Position numbers and translations under genes: made by a program | In this document: positions 1,997-14,005 of the stretch, one piece after another | How positions within the stretch are numbered: the first letter of the stretch is position 1 | Layout: each line of letters begins with the position of its first letter | The notes under the pieces: generated by a model | What the model saw: only the letters and a program-made list of their open reading frames with translations | Database searches by the model: none | What the model was told of the DNA's origin: nothing | Assembly: GCA_017619885.1 (NCBI GenBank) | Contig: JAFZRM010000024.1 | Span: forward strand, 1 to 41,366 | DNA from: Clostridia bacterium | Lineage (GTDB): Bacteria; Bacillota; Clostridia; Oscillospirales; CAG-272 | Length of the DNA: 41,366 nt | Direction: 5' to 3'

Positions 1997-2033
1997 ACTT
2001 TACCTCCGTATTTTACGCTATTCAATTTCTTTC

Positions 2034-2062
2034 ATTATAGATCAAATCGTCACCGTTGTCAA
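2034..2062 (-). promoter_or_regulatory. Sigma-A promoter
   Basis: Minus strand TTGACA (2062-2057), 17 bp spacer, TATAAT (2039-2034). Confidence 0.8.
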
Positions 2063-2125
2063 GTGGTGTTTTCCATTTATTGTCGGTTATCCGATAAAAA
2101 GAAAGATAAATTGAAATATATACCC

Positions 2126-2165
2126 AAAAAAAGAAGACCGCTTGCCCGACGGCAGACGGCCTTTT
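2126..2165 (-). terminator. Intrinsic terminator for 2178..3728
   Basis: Minus strand GGCCGTCTGCC-GTCG-GGCAAGCGGTC followed by TTCTTTTTTT. Confidence 0.65.
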
Positions 2166-2177
2166 GATCACAGTTTA

Positions 2178-3728
2178 TTATTTCTTCTTTTTCTTGGAGA
2201 GGACTATGCCGCATACTACGGCAGCGACTACTACCACAGCCGCAACAGCGATGCCGATGATGGCGCCGGTGTTGGATTTCTTTTCGCCGGTCGAGCCGCC
2301 GTCTGTCGTTACGTCGGCAGTGCCGGGAGCAGCCTGCGTACCGTCGTCGGCGGTGTTGTCGCCGGAAGCGGCGGTCGTGTCGTCAGCGGGCGCGGTGGTG
2401 TCGTCAGCGGCGGTCGTTGCGGTGCCCCACTGGCTGTCATAGTAAGCGCCCATATTGGCGTAGTGATAAGCATCCTTTTCGCTGCGGAAGAAACCGATCC
2501 ACATTATGTCGGCTTCCTGCTCGTTGAGCGAGCCGTCGCCGGCGATGTCGAGACGGAAAGCGTTGATCAGACCTTCCCAGGTCGCCTCGTCGGTGAGGTC
2601 GATGCAGAGGATCCTCCAGCCGTTGTCGTTGTCTTCATCATAATCGCCTTCAGCCCAGGCAAAGCCGATGTGAGAGTCGTTCTGAGCTGCGTAAACTTCG
2701 CCGGCGCAGTACCACAGAGAAGCGGATCCGCCGATCTCGTCGAGGTCCTTATAAAGTATCGCCCATACCGGGAACTCTTCGGCTTTGTAGGAGCCTGTGT
2801 TGACGTTTCCGTTCAGCATAGGCGCGTTCTCGTCAAACGTGATATGAAGCGATCCGTCGTCGTTGACGATAGAGGTCATGCCGCCTCCGGGCGTGTTCTT
2901 CTTGACTCTGTCAGCATTCCACAGCCAGCAGGGCTCGCCTTCCGGAACAGCGGGAGTTTCTTCTATCGGAGGTCTCGGCTTGAGATCGTCGGGTATATAC
3001 GGATCGGACGCGTCGGTACCGGTCGGCTTGCTGCCGTTGAATTCGGTGACCGTGAACACGATCTGCTCTCTGGTGCCCTGATGTCCGGTAAGACCTATGT
3101 AAGCCTCATCGTTTTCCATATACTGAACGAACTTGCTCGCCTTCATATCGACGCCGTTGACGTAAACGTTATATTTGCCGTCTTCCGGTTTGATCTCGAG
3201 CGTGATAGCTTCGCCCTCGTAAATGTTGACGTCGCTGTTCGTCATCGTGAGGTTAGTCATGGCGACGGACGGCGAGCACAGATAGGATTCAAGCGAGCAT
3301 CCGGCGGAACTCGGTCTGATAAGGCAGAACCAGCCGCAGCCGTAACCGGCGGCGCCCTGCGCTATCTTCTGGCTGTCCCAGATGGAGAAGGAGAGCCATT
3401 TATCGGCGCTGCCGTCGCAGAATTTGTCAACGACGACGGTCATCGATATACCGTTCTTATAGCTGACCTTTTCTTTGGTCTGAAGCGTGCCCCAGCCGTT
3501 GCTGCCCATATCTTTGAGCTGATCGTCGGTGCAGGTGTACATCTGGACGCCGAGGTCAACGTAACGGATACCGGGAGTCTTCGGCAGGCTGTCGTCTTCG
3601 CCGTATTCTTCCTTGTATGCGTTGGCAGACGCATAGGGGACCCACTCGTTGTCGGCGGCGTTTGCGGTGAACACGAACATGGACATGAGCATCGCGGCCG
3701 TCAGGATCATTGCGAATATTTTTCTCAT
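2178..3728 (-). CDS. Secreted, C-terminally anchored surface protein; paralog of 485..1996
   Basis: Collinear shared motifs (NEWVPY, GVQMYT, DKW.SF..W, AAGYG.GW.CLIRP, LYKDLDEIG, NDNGWR); KKSNTG-TM-KKKKK tail. Confidence 0.8.
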   Translation of the reverse strand: MRKIFAMILTAAMLMSMFVFTANAADNEWVPYASANAYKEEYGEDDSLPKTPGIRYVDLGVQMYTCTDDQLKDMGSNGWGTLQTKEKVSYKNGISMTVVVDKFCDGSADKWLSFSIWDSQKIAQGAAGYGCGWFCLIRPSSAGCSLESYLCSPSVAMTNLTMTNSDVNIYEGEAITLEIKPEDGKYNVYVNGVDMKASKFVQYMENDEAYIGLTGHQGTREQIVFTVTEFNGSKPTGTDASDPYIPDDLKPRPPIEETPAVPEGEPCWLWNADRVKKNTPGGGMTSIVNDDGSLHITFDENAPMLNGNVNTGSYKAEEFPVWAILYKDLDEIGGSASLWYCAGEVYAAQNDSHIGFAWAEGDYDEDNDNGWRILCIDLTDEATWEGLINAFRLDIAGDGSLNEQEADIMWIGFFRSEKDAYHYANMGAYYDSQWGTATTAADDTTAPADDTTAASGDNTADDGTQAAPGTADVTTDGGSTGEKKSNTGAIIGIAVAAVVVVAAVVCGIVLSKKKKK

Positions 3729-8503: not shown

Positions 8504-9268
8504 TTAATCTGTCTTTCTGGCGACGATCAGGTATCTGTGCGTCGTTCCTGCGATCCTGCCTTCACGCTCGATGATTTCATGCATTTTCAGCAGCCGGTCA
8601 AAGCATCGGTCTACGGAGAAGCCGGGGAATTCCCACTCGATTATCCTTGCAAACCATACGAAGGCGCCGACGTCGTAAAAACATATCGTGCCGAAAGCCT
8701 CGTCCGCCTGAATGATCTCGAAACCCGCGTCCTCAAATCTTTGCCTTTGCTCGCGCAGATTCTCGTGCGGGAACGGCGTTTCGGTGCCGGGGAGGACCAT
8801 CTCGACAAGCTCTCTGTCGTTGTCAGATCCCACCTGCTGTGTGATGAACAAGCCGCCGGGCTTCAGCAGCCGTTTGATCTCAGTCGGATCGAAGTCTCCG
8901 TGACGGTTTATGATCACATCAAAGGATCCGTCGTCAAACGGGATATGCGACGCGTCACTGCATTCACGCAAATCTATCCCGAGCGGCAAAAGTCTTTCCA
9001 TACAAAGTTTTACGTTCGGAGGATAACCCTCCGTCGCGGCCGTGTTTTCATACGGGTGATGAAGAGAGAGAAGAAACTCGCCGCCGCCCGTATCGTAATC
9101 AAGAAGCTTCATATCGTCCCGAAGAAAACAACGGATTATCTTTTCATAATCCCACGGTAAAACGTCTTCTTCCTCATAGCGCCCGCTGATATGCGAAAAA
9201 TCCCACCCTTTTATAAAGGCGCAAGCCTCTTCATTTTGCCAAACTGTTCTCAGTTCTTCAGCCGACAT
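8504..9268 (-). CDS. Class I SAM-dependent methyltransferase
   Basis: GWDFS, LLDYDTGGGE, FDVIINRH, LKPGGLFITQQVG; start at 9268 has a GGAG RBS (ORF is open to 9310). Confidence 0.9.
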   Translation of the reverse strand: MSAEELRTVWQNEEACAFIKGWDFSHISGRYEEEDVLPWDYEKIIRCFLRDDMKLLDYDTGGGEFLLSLHHPYENTAATEGYPPNVKLCMERLLPLGIDLRECSDASHIPFDDGSFDVIINRHGDFDPTEIKRLLKPGGLFITQQVGSDNDRELVEMVLPGTETPFPHENLREQRQRFEDAGFEIIQADEAFGTICFYDVGAFVWFARIIEWEFPGFSVDRCFDRLLKMHEIIEREGRIAGTTHRYLIVARKTD

Positions 9269-9372: not shown

Positions 9373-9484
9373 CTAGGCTCGAGTGATCAATGTAACTACT
9401 TCCACATGCTTTGGGACGATAGCGTGAATAAAAAGGCACATATTCACGCTGTTGTCACGACCAGCGGCGTAAAGAATTTGCCGT
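9373..9484 (-). repeat. Junction J4: inverted-repeat arm plus rlmD 3'-end copy HVEVVTLITRA*
   Basis: 9408-9373 translates to HVEVVTLITRA*; IR 9415-9430/9441-9456; 9401-9484 matches 10470-10553 at 68/84 nt without gaps. Confidence 0.85.
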
Positions 9485-9510
9485 TGCCCGAATAAGATCG
9501 TGTCATCGGT

Positions 9511-9954
9511 TCAGAAAACCCATTCGAACTCTACATAATCAATATCTGCATCCAAAATGATACAGCCGTTTGAGAACAGCTTAATGATGATGGAACATGA
9601 ACCGACATAGTGGGACAAATATTCCAATTTGAACTTACCTTCGGGCAATTCAGTTAACAAACTGTTTTTAATACGCTTATAGTGACCGTCTATTGAAAAC
9701 AGTTTTGAAAGCAGCCTCATCGGCTTTACCCATTTATAAATTGAGAAATCATCTGAATCAAAAGCATGATGATATCTGATTATAAGCGATTTTACGCCCG
9801 GTTTATAAAATTGAATTGAATCGTTGTTGGAAATACCGTCTTCAAATACAAATTCAATACATTGATTATCCAGATGGATATGTTGTATGACACAATCGTG
9901 AGGAATCGGTATTGTAGGCAGTGATTCTCCATTCAGGACGTATTTTTCTATCAT
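9511..9954 (-). CDS. Hypothetical protein (cassette D cargo)
   Basis: 147 aa AT-rich ORF with GAGG RBS, between junctions J3 and J4. Confidence 0.75.
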   Translation of the reverse strand: MIEKYVLNGESLPTIPIPHDCVIQHIHLDNQCIEFVFEDGISNNDSIQFYKPGVKSLIIRYHHAFDSDDFSIYKWVKPMRLLSKLFSIDGHYKRIKNSLLTELPEGKFKLEYLSHYVGSCSIIIKLFSNGCIILDADIDYVEFEWVF

Positions 9955-10001
9955 GTTTTCTCATTCCTCTCGTATTTGTTTAATATACATCTATCCCGTA
10001 G

Positions 10002-10044
10002 TCACGACCCGGCTCGAGACATCAATACGACTGATTCCACATGC
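10002..10044 (-). repeat. Junction J3: rlmD 3'-end copy HVESVVLMSRAGS* (no IR arm)
   Basis: 10013-10044 is 31/32 identical to 11806-11837. Confidence 0.85.
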
Positions 10045-10070
10045 GTCTTAAAAGGAAAGAAATCAATCTT

Positions 10071-10376
10071 TTACAAACAATAATCTATTTTCCATTCGTC
10101 AAAGTTGATTCCGCCTATTGATATCAAAACAATCTCATTCCATCGGTCTTTGATAGATTTGCCGTCAAAAATCGGAGCTTCAAAGAGTTCTTTTGCGGTT
10201 TTACATTCCCAACCGTTTTCAATGTCACAGTAACCTACCCAGTATGGCATTTCATATTGCGGCAAATATCCAATATAATGTTCCACTTCGTTCGGATCCG
10301 TTTTGAAATAGAAAGAAGTCTCGTCAATGTTTCTGCACTTTCTATCAAACAAGTCAAACAATGTTTCGTAATTCAT
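10071..10376 (-). CDS. Hypothetical protein (cassette C cargo), possibly toxin-immunity-like
   Basis: 101 aa acidic/aromatic ORF with ELFEAPIFDGKSIKDRW motif. Confidence 0.7.
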   Translation of the reverse strand: MNYETLFDLFDRKCRNIDETSFYFKTDPNEVEHYIGYLPQYEMPYWVGYCDIENGWECKTAKELFEAPIFDGKSIKDRWNEIVLISIGGINFDEWKIDYCL

Positions 10377-10553
10377 GATAACGTACCTTTCTTTGTTCCG
10401 AATTCTTCATCAGTCCGGGTGAACTCCAAATGATCGTCAATATTTTTCCGACGTAAAAGAACAACCGTCTCCACATGCCTCGGGACAATGGCGTGAATAA
10501 AAAAACCGTTATCAACGCTGTTGTCTCGACCCGCCTCGTAAAGAATATGCCGT
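10373..10553 (-). repeat. Junction J2: inverted-repeat arm plus extended rlmD 3'-end copy HVETVVLLRRKNIDDHLEF...
   Basis: 10477-10373 encodes a 34 aa tail; IR 10481-10499/10510-10528. Confidence 0.85.
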
Positions 10554-10575
10554 CGATCACTATGCAAAAGAAGAT

Positions 10576-11745
10576 TTACTCATCAAGATCATAATCATCC
10601 GGATTGAGCAATTTGATTCCCTGAGCATGATGCTCTTCAACAATTTCTCCCCACCTACGGTTGTGTTCTTCAATATACGCCCGTTTGCTTCCGTAACACC
10701 GCCAGGCACACCATCCGCATTGACCTTCCGGATTCTTCAAGGGGATAAAATGGACTGTTATGTCCAGCAGTTTTCTCGGATCGCCTTCAGGCGTAAAACG
10801 AACGCCGAATTGTCTTTTCCATTCTTCATCAATTTTTCTTTTCCAAGGCAGTCCTTCTTTCACACCTTCTCTAATTGGAAAATCGGGCAATTCTGCATAG
10901 TAAATCCACTGTTCGGTTTGCGTTTTTCTTTTCTCCAATTGAAGCGGAATGGTTTTTCTCGGATAACGGTCGAGATCATATTCCAACTGAACGTCGCGAA
11001 AACGGATTTTCTCTTGCTCAACATAACTGCCTGAAAAGGCAATCGCAACGCCTTTCGTTTTTCCTCCGGTATTAATCACAAAGTAACATTGGTCCTTTCC
11101 AATCTCACAAGGCATCAAACTGGGGCTTGTAAAGGACAGCTTTGGAGGCTCTGATTTTGAGGCCGATTCAGGAAGGTTGAAATATAAGGTTTGTACTCCT
11201 TCTGTAAACTGTTCCGTGATAAGCTCATCGCAGAACCGCCCCTGCCCGGATGTAAGCCCTAACAGCGGTTCAAGACCATCCAAGGCATCCTCTGCAAAAA
11301 CGTATTTCTGTGTAAGGACAGATTTCCATTGTGCATTATCAGTAACAATATCTTTCCACCTTGCCGGTGTTGAACGAATTTTGAGTTCGGGATAGCTTCC
11401 TGTTTTTGCCCAGGCGACGATGTCAAGTTTTTTGTTTACGCGGTTCAATATCAGACAGTCGCTGTCAAAACATGAAACGGTCAGCACGTCTGCCGATAAT
11501 TTCTCTGAAAGCGGGTTGCAAATATCTCGAATCGTTTCTTCTGTACAGAAATCAAGCCCGTCCGAACAAACAGAAACCCATTTCCCGCCTGCATCATAAA
11601 TTGAAAGCGACAAATCTGCTTCATCCGGACTATTCTTCTTCACGTATCCTTTTGCATTCAGTATCTCTGTCAAAGTCGACCGAAAAAAGTCCGCATCATA
11701 TTCCGCTGTTTTGCGCACATGAAGATTCGAGAAAAACCAACCCAT
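10576..11745 (-). CDS. Hypothetical protein (cassette B cargo)
   Basis: 389 aa ORF with GGGAGGG RBS; no confidently recognised family. Confidence 0.8.
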   Translation of the reverse strand: MGWFFSNLHVRKTAEYDADFFRSTLTEILNAKGYVKKNSPDEADLSLSIYDAGGKWVSVCSDGLDFCTEETIRDICNPLSEKLSADVLTVSCFDSDCLILNRVNKKLDIVAWAKTGSYPELKIRSTPARWKDIVTDNAQWKSVLTQKYVFAEDALDGLEPLLGLTSGQGRFCDELITEQFTEGVQTLYFNLPESASKSEPPKLSFTSPSLMPCEIGKDQCYFVINTGGKTKGVAIAFSGSYVEQEKIRFRDVQLEYDLDRYPRKTIPLQLEKRKTQTEQWIYYAELPDFPIREGVKEGLPWKRKIDEEWKRQFGVRFTPEGDPRKLLDITVHFIPLKNPEGQCGWCAWRCYGSKRAYIEEHNRRWGEIVEEHHAQGIKLLNPDDYDLDE

Positions 11746-11797
11746 GCTTTTACCCTCCCTTTCTGTTTTGAACTAAATATCATCCAACTTGTACACT

Positions 11798-11886
11798 CTA
11801 CCCGTCTCGAGACATCAATACGACTGATTCGACATGCCTTGGAGCAGCAGGTCAAATAAAAAAGCTTGTATTCGACCCACTGGCTC
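11798..11886 (-). repeat. Junction J1: diverged inverted-repeat arm plus rlmD 3'-end copy HVESVVLMSRDG*
   Basis: 11836-11798 tail; IR 11842-11858/11869-11886 with the same AATA-N10-TATT geometry. Confidence 0.8.
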
Positions 11887-11974
11887 ATCCCAATGAAGGA
11901 ATGGGCAATTCCCCAGGACTGGTCAGGGTTGAGACAGTAGGATGAATATCGGTACGCCGATAAACCGGAATTTG

Positions 11975-12478
11975 TCAAACCATTCTCGACAACAGAAAAT
12001 CAGGACGTTCCCCTATTAAAACCGAGTCAGTAACGTCAATTACTTCAATATCGCCCTTCGAGTATTCATCTACAAAACTTCTTTCATTATCAAAGATCAG
12101 CTCTTTCCCATACCAAGGTTTCCCAGACTGGGGAGTAAGCTCCAAATAAACAGTTTTATTTTCGAGATAAAATGTCAAAACGGTATGTTGCTTTCTGCTC
12201 TGCTTATCATGCAAGAGCCATATCTTGCTTGGGATATTACGCTTGTCAAGAATGTATCTCATCAGAACAACAGCATCATTACATGTGCCCACCTTTGCTT
12301 TCATAGTGTCCTCTGGGTCCTGAATGCAATATTCCGTTTGTAAACGGTCAAAAAACTCTTTGTCAAATCCCTTAGTCATATCAGGCTTATATGTTTTGCC
12401 ATTCAAATAGAAGCCGTATTCGTAACCATTATCCAAAAGTTCTTGTTTCAACAGCTTGCATGTTTCTTTTATCAACAT
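11975..12478 (-). CDS. Putative transglutaminase-like (Cys-His-Glu) protein (cassette A cargo)
   Basis: Start MLIKETCK at 12478 after GGAGG; motifs VGTCNDAV, HTVL and VYLE. Confidence 0.65.
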   Translation of the reverse strand: MLIKETCKLLKQELLDNGYEYGFYLNGKTYKPDMTKGFDKEFFDRLQTEYCIQDPEDTMKAKVGTCNDAVVLMRYILDKRNIPSKIWLLHDKQSRKQHTVLTFYLENKTVYLELTPQSGKPWYGKELIFDNERSFVDEYSKGDIEVIDVTDSVLIGERPDFLLSRMV

Positions 12479-12507
12479 TGCTATTCCTCCGTCAAACTCC
12501 GATTTAC

Positions 12508-13839
12508 TCATTTCTTTGTCATTAATACCACCGTCTCCACGTGTCCGGTCTGGGGGAACATATTGAACGGATACGCGGTATCCGCAGAGTAGCTGCCGAG
12601 CAGTTTTTTCAAATCGCGCGCGAGAGTATCGGGATCGCATGAAATGTACAGGAGTTTATCAGGTGCGATGTCAAATATCGCGTCTATTACTTCATCCGAA
12701 AGACCTTTTCGCGGCGGATCGACTATGATCGCGTCGACTTTTCCGTTGACTGCATTTTTAATTACCGAGCTGTCTCCGCAGAGGAATTCAGCATTGTTAG
12801 CTTCGTTCAGGCGCGCGTTGATCCTTGCATTTTCGACCGCTTCCGGCACTATCTCGACCCCTATGAGTCTGCCGGTCCCGCGAGCCGCACACAGCCCGAC
12901 GGTGCCGACGCCGCAGTACAAATCGACGACGACTTCGCTGCCTTTAAGATCGAGCAACTCCGACGCTTTTATATAAAGCGCCTCACAGCAGTCGTGATTC
13001 ACCTGGTAAAACGACGCCGGTGATATCTCGAACTTCCTGCCGCACAGGATGTCGTGAAGTGTTTCTTTACCGTAAACGCTTACGTATTTTTTTCCGTAGA
13101 TAACGTTAGTGTTTTCCTCGTTCACATTTACCGTGATACCGCAGACGCGCGAATGCGCCGAAGTTACGGCGGAAATCAGCTCGTCACAGAAAGGCAGTCT
13201 TTTTGCGTTGATAACAATAATAAGAAGGATCCCTACCGTCCCGGATCTCATACAAATGTGTCTTAAAAGTCCTTTTCCGGTCTTTTCGCTGTAAGCGGTG
13301 ATACCGCGCGAGTCGGCGAAATCACAAACGGTCCGCGCTATGCGCGGGAATTCCGGATCGGCGATAATACAGTCCTCGCAGAAAACGATATCGTGGCTGT
13401 GCTGTGCGTAGTAACCGAACGATACATGCCCGTTTTTGTCGACCCCGACGGGGAACTGCGCTTTGTTGCGGTATCTCGTGCCGTCGCCGACGGACGTGAC
13501 CTCTGCTACCGAGATATCAACGCCCGCGCGAAGAAAAGCCCCTTCGACGATCCGACGCTTTATTTGCAATTCATGCTCCGGCGTGATATTTTTGAAAGAA
13601 CAGCCGCCGCATCTTTTATATCCGCACAAGGGCTGTACGCGATTCTGTGACGGTTCGATGAGCTCGGTGATCGCGGCGACACAGTAGTTTTTCGCCGTCT
13701 TTATGACTTTGACTTTGCAAACGTCTCCTGTGACGGCGCCGATAACGAAAAACACGGTGCCGTCAACGCGGCATACACCGTTGCCTTCATTATTCATATC
13801 GTCGATTCTGACTGTGAAAATCTGATCTTTTGCAAACAT
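12508..13839 (-). CDS. rlmD: 23S rRNA (uracil-5)-methyltransferase RlmD/RumA
   Basis: TRAM domain, C..K.CGGC Fe-S motif, DLYCGVG, VDPPRKG, YISCDPDTLARD, MFPQTGHVETVVLM. Confidence 0.95.
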   Translation of the reverse strand: MFAKDQIFTVRIDDMNNEGNGVCRVDGTVFFVIGAVTGDVCKVKVIKTAKNYCVAAITELIEPSQNRVQPLCGYKRCGGCSFKNITPEHELQIKRRIVEGAFLRAGVDISVAEVTSVGDGTRYRNKAQFPVGVDKNGHVSFGYYAQHSHDIVFCEDCIIADPEFPRIARTVCDFADSRGITAYSEKTGKGLLRHICMRSGTVGILLIIVINAKRLPFCDELISAVTSAHSRVCGITVNVNEENTNVIYGKKYVSVYGKETLHDILCGRKFEISPASFYQVNHDCCEALYIKASELLDLKGSEVVVDLYCGVGTVGLCAARGTGRLIGVEIVPEAVENARINARLNEANNAEFLCGDSSVIKNAVNGKVDAIIVDPPRKGLSDEVIDAIFDIAPDKLLYISCDPDTLARDLKKLLGSYSADTAYPFNMFPQTGHVETVVLMTKK

Positions 13840-13930: not shown

Positions 13931-14005
13931 TGGTGACCCGTGGGGGAATCGAACCCCCGTTTCCAGCGTGAGAGGCTAGCGTCTTGGCCGCTTGACCAAC
14001 GGGCC
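13931..14005 (-). tRNA. tRNA-Glu (anticodon CTC)
   Basis: GGCCCGTTGGTCAAGCGGCCAAGACGCTAGCCTCTCACGCTGGAAACGGGGGTTCGATTCCCCCACGGGTCACCA; cloverleaf, GTTCGA T-loop, encoded CCA. Confidence 0.95.

Follow-up and report, generated by a model that had tools for sequence, protein, structure and literature searches.

The DNA analysed here (the window, 41,366 nt) belongs to a 2.59-Mb (2,592,697 bases) rumen-type Clostridia genome which is 82% complete. On its minus strand it contains an intact rlmD gene (Table 1), whose product matches Pfam tRNA_U5-meth_tr (1.9e-21) up to the last position of the profile and also has a TRAM domain. The 3' end of this gene, encoding HVE.V.L.. followed by a stop codon, is present in five in-frame copies on the minus strand, at positions 12543, 11836, 10477, 10043 and 9408. 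These copies delimit units of 707, 1359, 434 and 635 bp, and one ORF co-oriented with rlmD (167, 389, 101 and 147 aa, respectively) lies between each pair of consecutive copies. The G+C content is 35-45% in the cassette region versus 48-55% in the flanks. Thus, the tail copies, the unit lengths, the single ORF per interval and the AT-richness claimed in the preliminary description of the locus were all borne out.

Table 1. Features of the rlmD-associated array and its flanks (window positions) and loci sharing the class-2 arm.
Feature	Position	Strand	Remarks
SAM-dependent methyltransferase, first gene past the array	8504..9268	-	Pfam Methyltransf_11, 1.5e-7
Core and tail 5 (HVEVVTLITRA, stop); last tail copy	9373..9408	-	
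Class-1 3' arm of cassette 4	9409..9490	-	repeat D1; hairpin, fold z = -2.9
Cassette 4 gene, 147 aa, no known family	9511..9954	-	
Core and tail 4 (HVESVVLMSRAGS, stop); start of cassette 4	10002..10043	-	
Cassette 3 gene, 101 aa, no known family, without 3' arm	10071..10376	-	
Core and long tail 3 (HVETVVLLRRKN..., 34 aa, stop); start of cassette 3	10373..10477	-	runs into the start of the following ORF
Class-1 3' arm of cassette 2	10478..10560	-	repeat D1
Cassette 2 gene, 389 aa, no known family	10576..11745	-	
Core and tail 2 (HVESVVLMSRDG, stop); start of cassette 2	11798..11836	-	repeat D3
Class-2 3' arm, ~140 nt, hairpin adjoining the core	11837..11976	-	fold z = -2.6
Cassette 1 gene, 167 aa, possibly transglutaminase-like	11975..12478	-	DUF553, below cut-off
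Core CACGTGGA and tail 1 (HVETVVLMTKK, stop); true rlmD end and start of cassette 1	12508..12543	-	
rlmD/rumA-type 23S rRNA (uracil-5) methyltransferase, 443 aa, intact	12508..13839	-	Pfam
Loci with the class-2 arm			L032/L058 (one sequence), L050, L053, L070, L074, L078, L128

A degenerate DNA pattern for the tail has exactly five matches in the whole 2,592,697-base genome, all of them in the array; since the pattern was derived from the five copies, these match by construction, while the reversed pattern, used as a control in the same genome, has none. In 60 relatives, 12 genomes have a match, 11 with one and G039 with four. Each unit opens with an in-frame HVE.V.L... replacement tail and a stop codon. 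An 8-nt core, CAYGTSGA, is common to all five junctions, and the homology blocks stop at its last A. This suggests that the crossover takes place at the GA of the Glu codon, in agreement with the GA target in a conserved Glu codon near the rumA 3' end in PMC4120198, and not between CAY and GT as originally proposed. The array junction coincides to the nucleotide with the serine-recombinase core of the published rumA hot spot, and the earlier statement that the rlmD/rumA 3' end is a known serine-integrase target was right.

The protein encoded by cassette 1 matches Pfam DUF553 under the cut-off (E=0.0097), and DUF553 is found on 26-35% of the members of its atlas neighbours at 0.96-0.97. Homologues of this gene come after rlmD in locus L082 and in genome G010. 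The cassette 2 protein has no match in Pfam, NCBIfam or PADLOC and its atlas neighbours are hypothetical Bacillota proteins; the gene is covered at ~97% identity by contigs from three other studies, which end near the gene boundaries. L050 encodes a protein with 97% amino acid identity to that of cassette 3; the gene is followed there by an ORF of 193 aa and an arm of class 2. Family searches revealed no conjugation or mobilization genes in the array, and the four cassette ORFs match no family. The right flank (window 9269-7553) is shared with L050 at 86% identity, but L050 holds other cassettes between.

A conserved 3' arm is present in three of the four units and is missing after the 101-aa ORF, so that the claim of an end arm in each unit holds for three units and fails for this one. 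There are two arm classes, class 1 of ~82 nt and class 2 of ~140 nt, both with an inverted repeat and ending in CAYGTS/GA. The two class-1 arms of the window are 81% identical over 84 nt, and counterparts of the class-2 arm in seven distinct loci share 76-89% identity with it over 123-166 nt. The class-1 consensus is based on 120 sites, and ~120 unique arm sites were found over all loci examined. The hairpin or dyad is located at the same place in both classes and differs in sequence; the fold z of the inverted repeat ranges from -0.8 to -3.2. In the class-1 stem, 9 of 16 positions are kept in 85-100% of 116 arms, the right stem arm being fixed by the search pattern. The arm has a weak coding-like signal (syn/nonsyn 0.46 vs 0.34-0.38 in other frames), none of 131 arms is crossed by a long ORF (maximum 116 codons), and the stop codon is separated from the following core by a median of 118 nt. 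Outside the core, the arms resemble neither the 3' ends of the recombinases nor rlmD bodies in DNA sequence, with scores at shuffle level.

Among public genome contigs, 90 stretches match the class-1 arm pattern. Most of them come from Clostridia MAGs of rumen and gut, labelled as Oscillospiraceae, Ruminococcaceae, Lachnospiraceae, Christensenellales and others. Within the order, 9 of 401 sampled genomes have the arm, G000 among them. Of the 47 informative class-1 arm loci, 33 have rlmD on the same strand at a distance of 0.5-2.2 kb upstream; another 54, out of 101 unique arm loci in total, were left out of this count, their upstream sequence being too short. The unique intervals between tail and arm (n=45) have a median length of 867 bp, 36 of them with exactly one ORF of at least 50 aa and one with a recombinase, and of 44 units shorter than 3 kb, 43 have their longest ORF in the same orientation as rlmD; sampling was limited to 8 kb around an arm, which favours short units. 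The cargo is rich in GNAT acetyltransferases (9 of 55 proteins) and includes TIR, DUF4279, DUF5071 and DMP19-like proteins; in three loci a GmrSD pair precedes a class-1 arm.

Comparison of loci revealed that the units behave as modules with exact boundaries. Seven cassette families are found in at least two loci with different neighbours: the next tail differs in all seven, the position (first versus internal) in five, and the length is equal within 1 nt in five. Cassette 4 is homologous from core to core in L075 (83% over 644 nt) and L115 (81% over 645 nt), the homology spanning positions 10044 and 10041, respectively, to 9401. Cassette 3 together with the preceding arm is 92.6% identical in L050 (10540 to 10054). 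The tail 4 type adjoins rlmD in L101 and is internal in L046, L050 and L075, and the tail 5 type is the end of rlmD itself in L036. On contigs of other runs, a class-1 arm or a foreign rlmD body is joined at the core to tail types of the window. In the closest relative, G005, the rlmD DNA is 95% identical over the last 300 nt and the sequence diverges from the core on, identity dropping from 95% upstream to 60% downstream. The opposite step is seen in G010, where rlmD is only 65% identical, yet the first cassette is 92% identical (72% upstream and 92% downstream of the core). Relatives thus do not hold the same four genes in fixed order, and exact-boundary copies of units do exist elsewhere; on these two points, named beforehand as decisive, the integron-like cassette reading came through, and overall it is partly supported.

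No match to PF07508 or PF00589 was found on the contig of the window, confirming that the units are recombinase-less; PF00589 has five matches in the genome, all on other contigs. The proposed large rlmD-targeting serine recombinase elsewhere in the genome was searched for, and no cognate enzyme was found in the 82% complete assembly: the protein closest to the arm-linked recombinases shares 27-33% identity with them, and the four serine recombinases of this genome whose C-terminus is complete all lack a rumA tail at their end. The same recombinase query has no homologue above 32% identity in ten other array-bearing genomes, most of them >92% complete. In relatives, however, recombinase-bearing elements occupy the same site. 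Loci L131, L132, L134 and L108 contain large serine recombinase ORFs which end in a rumA-type tail, fused in frame; Pfam, run on the first three, detected Resolvase, Recombinase and Zn-ribbon domains. Downstream of these four recombinases one to three genes are followed by a class-1 arm, and a MobA/MobL relaxase was seen only in L131. Complete elements at this site measure 9.9 and ~13 kb, and in four relatives a recombinase-bearing element is located on the rlmD side of a cassette.

Based on its anatomy, recurrence, exact-boundary modularity and a site common with recombinase-bearing elements, the locus is a genuine miniature cassette array of integron-like build, of a widespread type and located at a known hot spot. 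The array probably consists of four minimal recombinase-less cassettes stacked close to the rlmD (rumA) 3' end, at the GA hot spot of the conserved Glu codon. A cassette would comprise the 8-nt core, a replacement rlmD tail with stop codon, one promoter-less co-oriented gene and a 3' arm of 80-140 nt. Since the cassette tail mimics the native one, the junction between rlmD body and tail would stay a usable target after each insertion, so that new units and whole serine-recombinase elements could enter on the rlmD side. Older units would be shifted downstream, each still behind the arm of its neighbour. That the newest unit adjoins rlmD is consistent with the recombinase elements on the rlmD side of a cassette in four relatives. 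The enzyme would be a large serine recombinase of the rumA-targeting kind, which may be provided in trans by an integrative mobilizable element or a prophage, or may carry neighbouring cassettes in cis. As the arms are unlike recombinase 3' ends and rlmD bodies, their recognition by rumA-targeting enzymes is only putative. It is tempting to speculate that the array is a true serine-recombinase counterpart of the integron, with the rlmD body/tail junction as fixed capture site and arm-core-tail as cassette site, and we regard this stronger reading as tentative. A visiting rumA-targeting recombinase could then both insert circles carrying one gene at the first position and excise blocks from the front of the array. 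Large serine recombinases normally pair attP only with attB, and this alone does not account for rearrangement of internal cassettes.

Alternatively, the units could be static wreckage, namely deletion remnants (CIMEs) of full serine-recombinase elements, with small units that never move. Accretion followed by decay is a published route to such tandems, according to PMC5704250, and the complete elements at the same site in relatives as well as the 11 array genomes in which no cognate recombinase was found would fit. However, random deletion would not yield one ORF in 36 of 45 units and co-orientation in 43 of 44, and units recurring at the same length with other neighbours, at first and internal positions, together with two standard arm classes unrelated to recombinase 3' ends over ~120 unique sites, make this rather unlikely. 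It is also conceivable that the units arose once by site-specific recombination and are now exchanged via arms and tails after DNA uptake, by homologous recombination with no dedicated recombinase. Homology is available in the arms (80-140 nt, 75-94% identity) and in the shared tails. Moreover, the arm behind the cassette 1 gene is of class 2 in the window and of class 1 in L082 and L095, so the pairing of gene and arm can change. Arms diverging by 10-25% are poor substrates for homologous recombination, however, and since the homology of cassette 4 runs exactly from core to core, arm included, and identity steps are located at the core, we consider such shuffling unlikely.

The hairpin or dyad at the same place in both arm classes, the kept class-1 stem and the dissimilarity of the arms to the ends of serine recombinases would also be in line with sites for another recombinase, which could be a tyrosine recombinase (folded or dyad sites, integron-like) or a hijacked host Xer (pdif-like), in which case the overlap with the serine-recombinase hot spot would be secondary. 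This is improbable: the contig of the window is without a tyrosine recombinase, no recombinase family is among the 25 of 45 families listed for 51 proteins upstream of arms (9 loci), no covariation is shown within class 1, whose right stem arm is fixed by the search pattern, the junction coincides to the nucleotide with the serine-recombinase core, and four serine recombinases are located directly upstream of cassettes in relatives. Finally, the source data are short-read metagenome assemblies, which often break at such arrays, and the unit order within a single contig could be chimeric. In the extreme case, arms and tails of many organisms were misjoined and the array is present in no cell. 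Indeed, the summed contig depth of arms and tails is 10-40 times that of unique parts, the contigs of all six same-genus genomes with an rlmD match stop ~0-412 nt past rlmD, and junctions 10043 and 10477 are unbridged among the contigs listed for the best-holding run. Nevertheless, contigs of run X1 bridge 12543, 11836 and 9408, L050 bridges 10477, and units of the same build were assembled independently at >100 loci in many studies, which renders an artefact very improbable; the arm-less junction 10043 is supported by the short-read assembly of the window only. We attribute the breaks of MAG assemblies of this genus right past rlmD to these arrays.

The arrays are important for several reasons. 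To our knowledge, no well-established system other than the integron, which requires a tyrosine recombinase, stacks promoter-less genes one by one at a fixed site, and integrons are rarely found in Firmicutes. In the arrays, the architecture of an integron is seen at rumA/rlmD, a hot spot for serine-recombinase elements. Provided that the units are mobile, gut microbiomes of livestock would exchange genes by a route that has so far escaped notice, and the arrays would be a natural source of short site/recombinase pairs. Should the reading as an integron counterpart be true, rumen and gut Clostridia would share a stackable pool of acetyltransferase, immunity-like and anti-phage genes.

Among known systems, the elements of the rumA hot spot come close. 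In PMC4120198, these are vanG elements and ICE-r of streptococci, enterococci and Roseburia, 16-71 kb in size, which bring replacement tails, have the serine recombinase gene fused to the displaced tail and form tandem insertions. The array resembles them in the conserved Glu codon target, the in-frame replacement tail, the displaced tail kept downstream and the tandems; the recombinase fused to the displaced tail is absent in the window and present in the four relatives described above. While rumA elements encode their own recombinase and transfer genes, the units of the window are 434-1359 bp in length, carry one gene and no recombinase, and have a non-coding 3' arm. CIMEs and tandem accretion of ICEs and IMEs (Pavlovic 2004 and Bellanger 2011, as cited in PMC5704250) provide a second parallel: like CIMEs, the units have att-like flanks (core and tail on the left, arm and core on the right), lack integration and transfer genes, form a stack where a housekeeping gene has its 3' end and may be mobilized, in cis or in trans, by a neighbour that is functional. 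CIMEs, however, are decayed multi-gene elements, whereas the array units are standardised, single-gene and co-oriented, with two arm classes across bacterial families. SCC elements, of several to tens of kb, use the 3' end of rlmH, and we know of no standard 3' arm in them. In PMC13739063 and bioRxiv 10.1101/336396, SCC are described as Ccr serine-recombinase elements at the rRNA methyltransferase gene rlmH (orfX) of staphylococci, whose tandem islands include ccr-less pseudo-SCC units. They differ from the array in their hosts and in the target, here an rlmD/rumA-type methyltransferase with TRAM and U5-methyltransferase domains. The pdif modules of Acinetobacter plasmids and tycheposon islands are likewise small recombinase-less cargo modules with sites for an enzyme encoded elsewhere; the enzymes are Xer, or tyrosine integrases at tRNA genes, and the array differs from them in enzymes, sites and hosts. 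As in integrons, cassettes that lack a promoter and mostly have a single ORF follow one another in the same orientation, with a primary site fixed at one end of the row. In both systems, the recombination site at the 3' end of a cassette measures ~60-140 nt and contains an imperfect inverted repeat, and GNAT acetyltransferases, defence genes and small proteins of unknown function abound in the cargo. Unlike in integrons, no integrase (intI-type tyrosine recombinase) adjoins the array, the primary site is inside a housekeeping coding sequence and the core is a serine-recombinase GA site. Since modules of this kind recur in many related gut bacteria, the locus looks like an integron-like gene-collecting site that was so far undescribed.

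The last codons of rlmD encode the C-terminus HVETVVLMTKK*, and behind this gene the tail recurs in frame four more times on the same strand (Table). A search of the whole genome (2.59 Mb) with a degenerate tail pattern, which was derived from the five copies in the window themselves, gave five matches that are exactly these copies, while the reversed control gave none. Among the relatives, 12 of 60 match this pattern, eleven of them with one copy and one (G039) with four. On re-measurement we obtained the same unit spacings of 707, 1359, 434 and 635 bp as in the preliminary description, and each interval indeed contains one ORF in the orientation of rlmD (167, 389, 101 and 147 aa). The G+C content of the array is 35-45%, compared to 48-55% in the flanks. 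Tails are sometimes long: in the related locus L131, a ~100-aa extension ending in ...ALKHFGMI* is fused to RlmD, and a related extension is located after an arm in locus L040. The third tail of the window (34 aa) may be a shortened form of this long type.

Features of the rlmD-associated array and of the loci compared with it (positions are those of the window unless a locus is named)
Feature	Position	Strand	Remarks
tRNA gene	13934-14005	minus	Rfam RF00005, 60.9 bits; directly upstream of rlmD; sole Rfam match at gathering score within the window
rlmD/rumA-type methyltransferase gene, 443 aa	13839-12508	minus	Pfam tRNA_U5-meth_tr and TRAM
Further tail copies (starts)	11836, 10477, 10043, 9408	minus	in frame
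Third tail, 34 aa	10477-10373	minus	
Class-2 arm, ~140 nt	11976-11837	minus	ends ...CTCCAAGG, then CATGTCGA
Class-1 arms, ~82 nt	10560-10478 and 9490-9409	minus	imperfect inverted repeat; end ...TTGTCCC.AGG, then CAYGTSGA
Armless joint of cassette 3 and tail 4	10054-10043		
Extension related to the long RlmD tail	L040, 2951-3388		after an arm
rlmD 3' fragment	L017 (G039:C29), 1999-2208		69 codons; tail at 2173
GmrSD-type gene pair	L135, 13270-17362		directly before a class-1 arm
Contigs breaking after rlmD	G005:C36, G003:C20, G004:C146, G006:C222, G010:C60, G009:C130		same-genus genomes

The comparison with other genomes revealed that the units behave as modules. The 45 unique tail-to-arm intervals have a median length of 867 bp (loci of up to 8 kb were examined, so that long units are under-represented), and 36 of them contain exactly one ORF of at least 50 aa. 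A recombinase is present in one of the 45, which is 9.9 kb long. The longest ORF has the orientation of rlmD in 43 of the 44 units shorter than 3 kb; the median distances are 74 nt from the core to the start codon and 118 nt from the stop codon to the next core. Seven cassette families recur in two or more loci, and in all seven the following tail differs. Five of the seven directly follow rlmD in one genome and are internal in another, and in five the lengths agree within 1 nt. Tail types are common to rlmD-adjacent and internal positions.

Individual breakpoints coincide with the core. Cassette 4 has homologues in two loci elsewhere (L075 and L115), and the match runs precisely from one core to the next (10044/10041 to 9401, 81-83% identity). 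Cassette 3 and its preceding arm are found with 92.6% identity in L050, which has the right flank in common with the window (9269-7553, 86%) but other units in between. The rlmD gene of the relative G010, with 65% identity at the protein level, matches at 72% in the 300 nt of DNA before the core and at 92% in the 340 nt after it. The closest relative, G005, shows 95% identity up to the core and no relationship beyond it.

According to the preliminary description every unit has an end arm. Repeat finding and comparison with other genomes bore this out for three units, but not for the unit with the 101-aa ORF, which lacks an arm. At this joint, where cassette 3 meets tail 4, L050 reads ...TTAAGACAGTATGGTGA and the window ...TTAAGACGCATGTGGAA; either use of a secondary (pseudo) site by the lineage of the window or an assembly join may account for it. 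The class-2 arm, unrelated in sequence to class 1, carries a hairpin at the corresponding position. The core common to the junctions comprises 8 nt. With the right stem of the arm hairpin fixed by the search pattern, the partner at the one free position shows no covariation (C-A in 74 and C-G in 32 of 116). Stop codons are present within the last 27 codons of 23 of 123 arms, and the codon-position signal of the arms is weak, no more than faintly coding-like.

We considered several origins of the arms. If class 1 were a relic of a serine recombinase 3' end, it should align to such ends better than shuffled sequence does; however, in local alignments with four 3' ends the observed score was reached by 44 to 246 of 300 shuffles. 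A general origin from foreign rlmD 3' bodies did not hold either, the mean scores against 44 bodies being 12.9 (class 1) and 13.7 (class 2) vs 12.7 and 14.0 after shuffling. Nor is the arm the end of a present gene, as the longest ORF entering any of 131 arms has 116 codons. An initially considered dyad centred on the CA of the core was replaced by the published GA target; judged by eye, GTS-GA-GAC is symmetric about the latter. In locus L017, a true rlmD 3' fragment replaces the arm before a tail inside the array, and it is nearly identical to the end of that genome's own rlmD on contig C14.

The class-1 arm pattern matches twice in the genome of the window, both times in this array. In a sample of 401 genomes from the order it is present in nine (this one counted), one of which has seven copies. 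The species-representative genome collection yielded 90 stretches. The 80 that are listed come almost exclusively from rumen or gut MAGs, labelled as Clostridia, Oscillospiraceae, Ruminococcaceae, Lachnospiraceae, Christensenellales, Acutalibacteraceae and Erysipelotrichaceae. One contig in IMG/VR matches; the collections of cultured phages and plasmids gave no match. Excluding 54 of the 101 unique arm loci with less than 3 kb of upstream sequence, the arm is preceded at a distance of 0.5-2.2 kb by an rlmD gene of the same strand in 33 of the remaining 47. In all six genomes of the genus in which rlmD was matched, the contig breaks off 0-412 nt behind this gene (Table), a systematic interruption at the hot spot, where assembly is evidently difficult. 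The longest array of this analysis is on a metagenome contig of 8424 nt (L137), which carries a row of at least four one-gene units (173, 151, 176 and 158 aa), class-1 arms between them and then a class-2 arm. Locus L031 (G099:C25) contains a shorter rumA paralogue (384 aa) whose tail (HVETVCLLSRQ*IAPD; 5337 and 5537) recurs as an exact copy after 200 nt; two genes and then a class-1 arm lie beyond this copy, which suggests that rumA paralogues can be targets too.

Sequencing runs were evaluated as assembled contigs. In the run with the best cover of the region, three junctions (12543, 11836 and 9408) are spanned by contigs. Cassette 2 is covered at ~97% identity by contigs from three further studies, which terminate close to the cassette boundaries. 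At 10044 and 9410, loose contig ends connect tail types of the window with either a class-1 arm or the terminal part of an rlmD body from another organism. One contig of run X8, matched at 90% likeness, goes back 1359 nt (11831 to 10473, 8 shared letters), which is exactly the unit length of cassette 2. This fits a circle or a tandem copy, and equally well a similar arm of another cassette before a unit with the second tail type. The same ambiguity applies to contigs skipping 434 nt (X4) and 411 nt (X6) across cassette 3. In these three runs contigs are missing on most of rlmD and on the flank below 9000, which does not count as absence. A scan of metagenome contigs for the circle junction motif of cassette 2 found three stretches, all ordinary arrays with other genes, and no circle.

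Among 55 cassette proteins, including the four of the window, the 25 most frequent of 58 families include GNAT acetyltransferases (nine proteins) as well as SAM-methyltransferase domains, 23S-rRNA-IVS protein, DUF4279, TIR_2, DUF5071 and DMP19 (two proteins each). The four ORFs of the window have no at-threshold family in Pfam, NCBIfam or PADLOC. Below threshold, the 167-aa ORF matches DUF553 and the 147-aa ORF Csn2 (E=0.005); the 167-aa protein may be transglutaminase-like. A GmrSD-type (DUF262-like) restriction gene pair directly before a class-1 arm, 95% identical at the DNA level in L135, L073 and L086, looks like a two-gene defence cassette. One of these loci is an IMG/VR contig (L040/L135) with phage-like genes. 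Its 519-aa serine recombinase belongs to a different clade from the arm-linked enzymes described below (24-27% identity), and no core lies between it and the gene pair. Nine arm loci have no rlmD nearby (L030, L037, L072, L087, L092, L093, L106, L109 and L128). Their 51 upstream proteins include, among the best 25 of 45 families, seven GNATs, three beta-lactamase-family proteins, an MmeI-type restriction-modification enzyme, and TIR and Macro domain proteins; a recombinase family is not among these 25.

According to PMC4120198, the rumA hot spot is known in streptococci, enterococci and Roseburia. The elements described there are 16-71 kb long, target a GA dinucleotide in a conserved Glu codon near the 3' end, supply RumA with a fused replacement tail, and can be inserted in tandem; their right-end serine recombinase gene has no stop codon and is joined on insertion to the displaced codons of rumA. 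The core of the present array (His-Val-Glu, CAYGTS/GA) is this published site. Large serine recombinases were detected in four relatives (L131, L132, L134 and L108). The four ORFs share the C-terminus ...E[TC]V[VT]L[IM]T...*, and downstream of each come one to three genes and then a class-1 arm. The enzymes of L131, L132 and L134 have Resolvase, Recombinase and Zn-ribbon domains (Pfam), with 38-54% identity among the three; a MobA/MobL relaxase is additionally encoded in L131. Such tail-ended recombinases before cassettes suggest that recombinase-bearing mobilizable elements inserted at the junction next to rlmD, ahead of cassettes already present. The tail of a cassette would then serve the incoming element as the right half of its target. 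The position of these elements speaks for serial insertion from the side of rlmD.

No serine or tyrosine recombinase is encoded on the contig of the window. The preliminary description proposed to look for a cognate enzyme elsewhere in the genome (82% complete); this revealed no homologue of the arm-linked enzymes above 33% identity, and none of the four complete serine recombinases of the genome has a rumA tail. Ten other array genomes also have no close homologue of these enzymes; other serine recombinases, three to six each, are present in all five of the ten that were tested. The arms resemble neither recombinase 3' ends nor rlmD bodies; that a serine recombinase acts on them is therefore inferred.

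The comparative evidence fits the proposal of integron-like, recombinase-less cassettes stacked at the rlmD end, and this proposal withstands the two tests that the preliminary description set for it: relatives do not keep the same four genes in fixed order, and units recur elsewhere with exact boundaries. We are highly confident that a modular, horizontally exchanged cassette array exists here. The explanation as a whole, with a serine recombinase that acts in trans or in cis, is somewhat favoured, while a fully fledged serine-recombinase 'integron' seems rather doubtful. In the literature searched we found no description of single-gene cassette arrays at rlmD/rumA. Four known things come closest: CIMEs and tandem accretion (PMC5704250); SCC and pseudo-SCC islands at rlmH; the rumA hot-spot elements, which use the same site but are large and autonomous; and integrons, which have the same architecture but use another enzyme.
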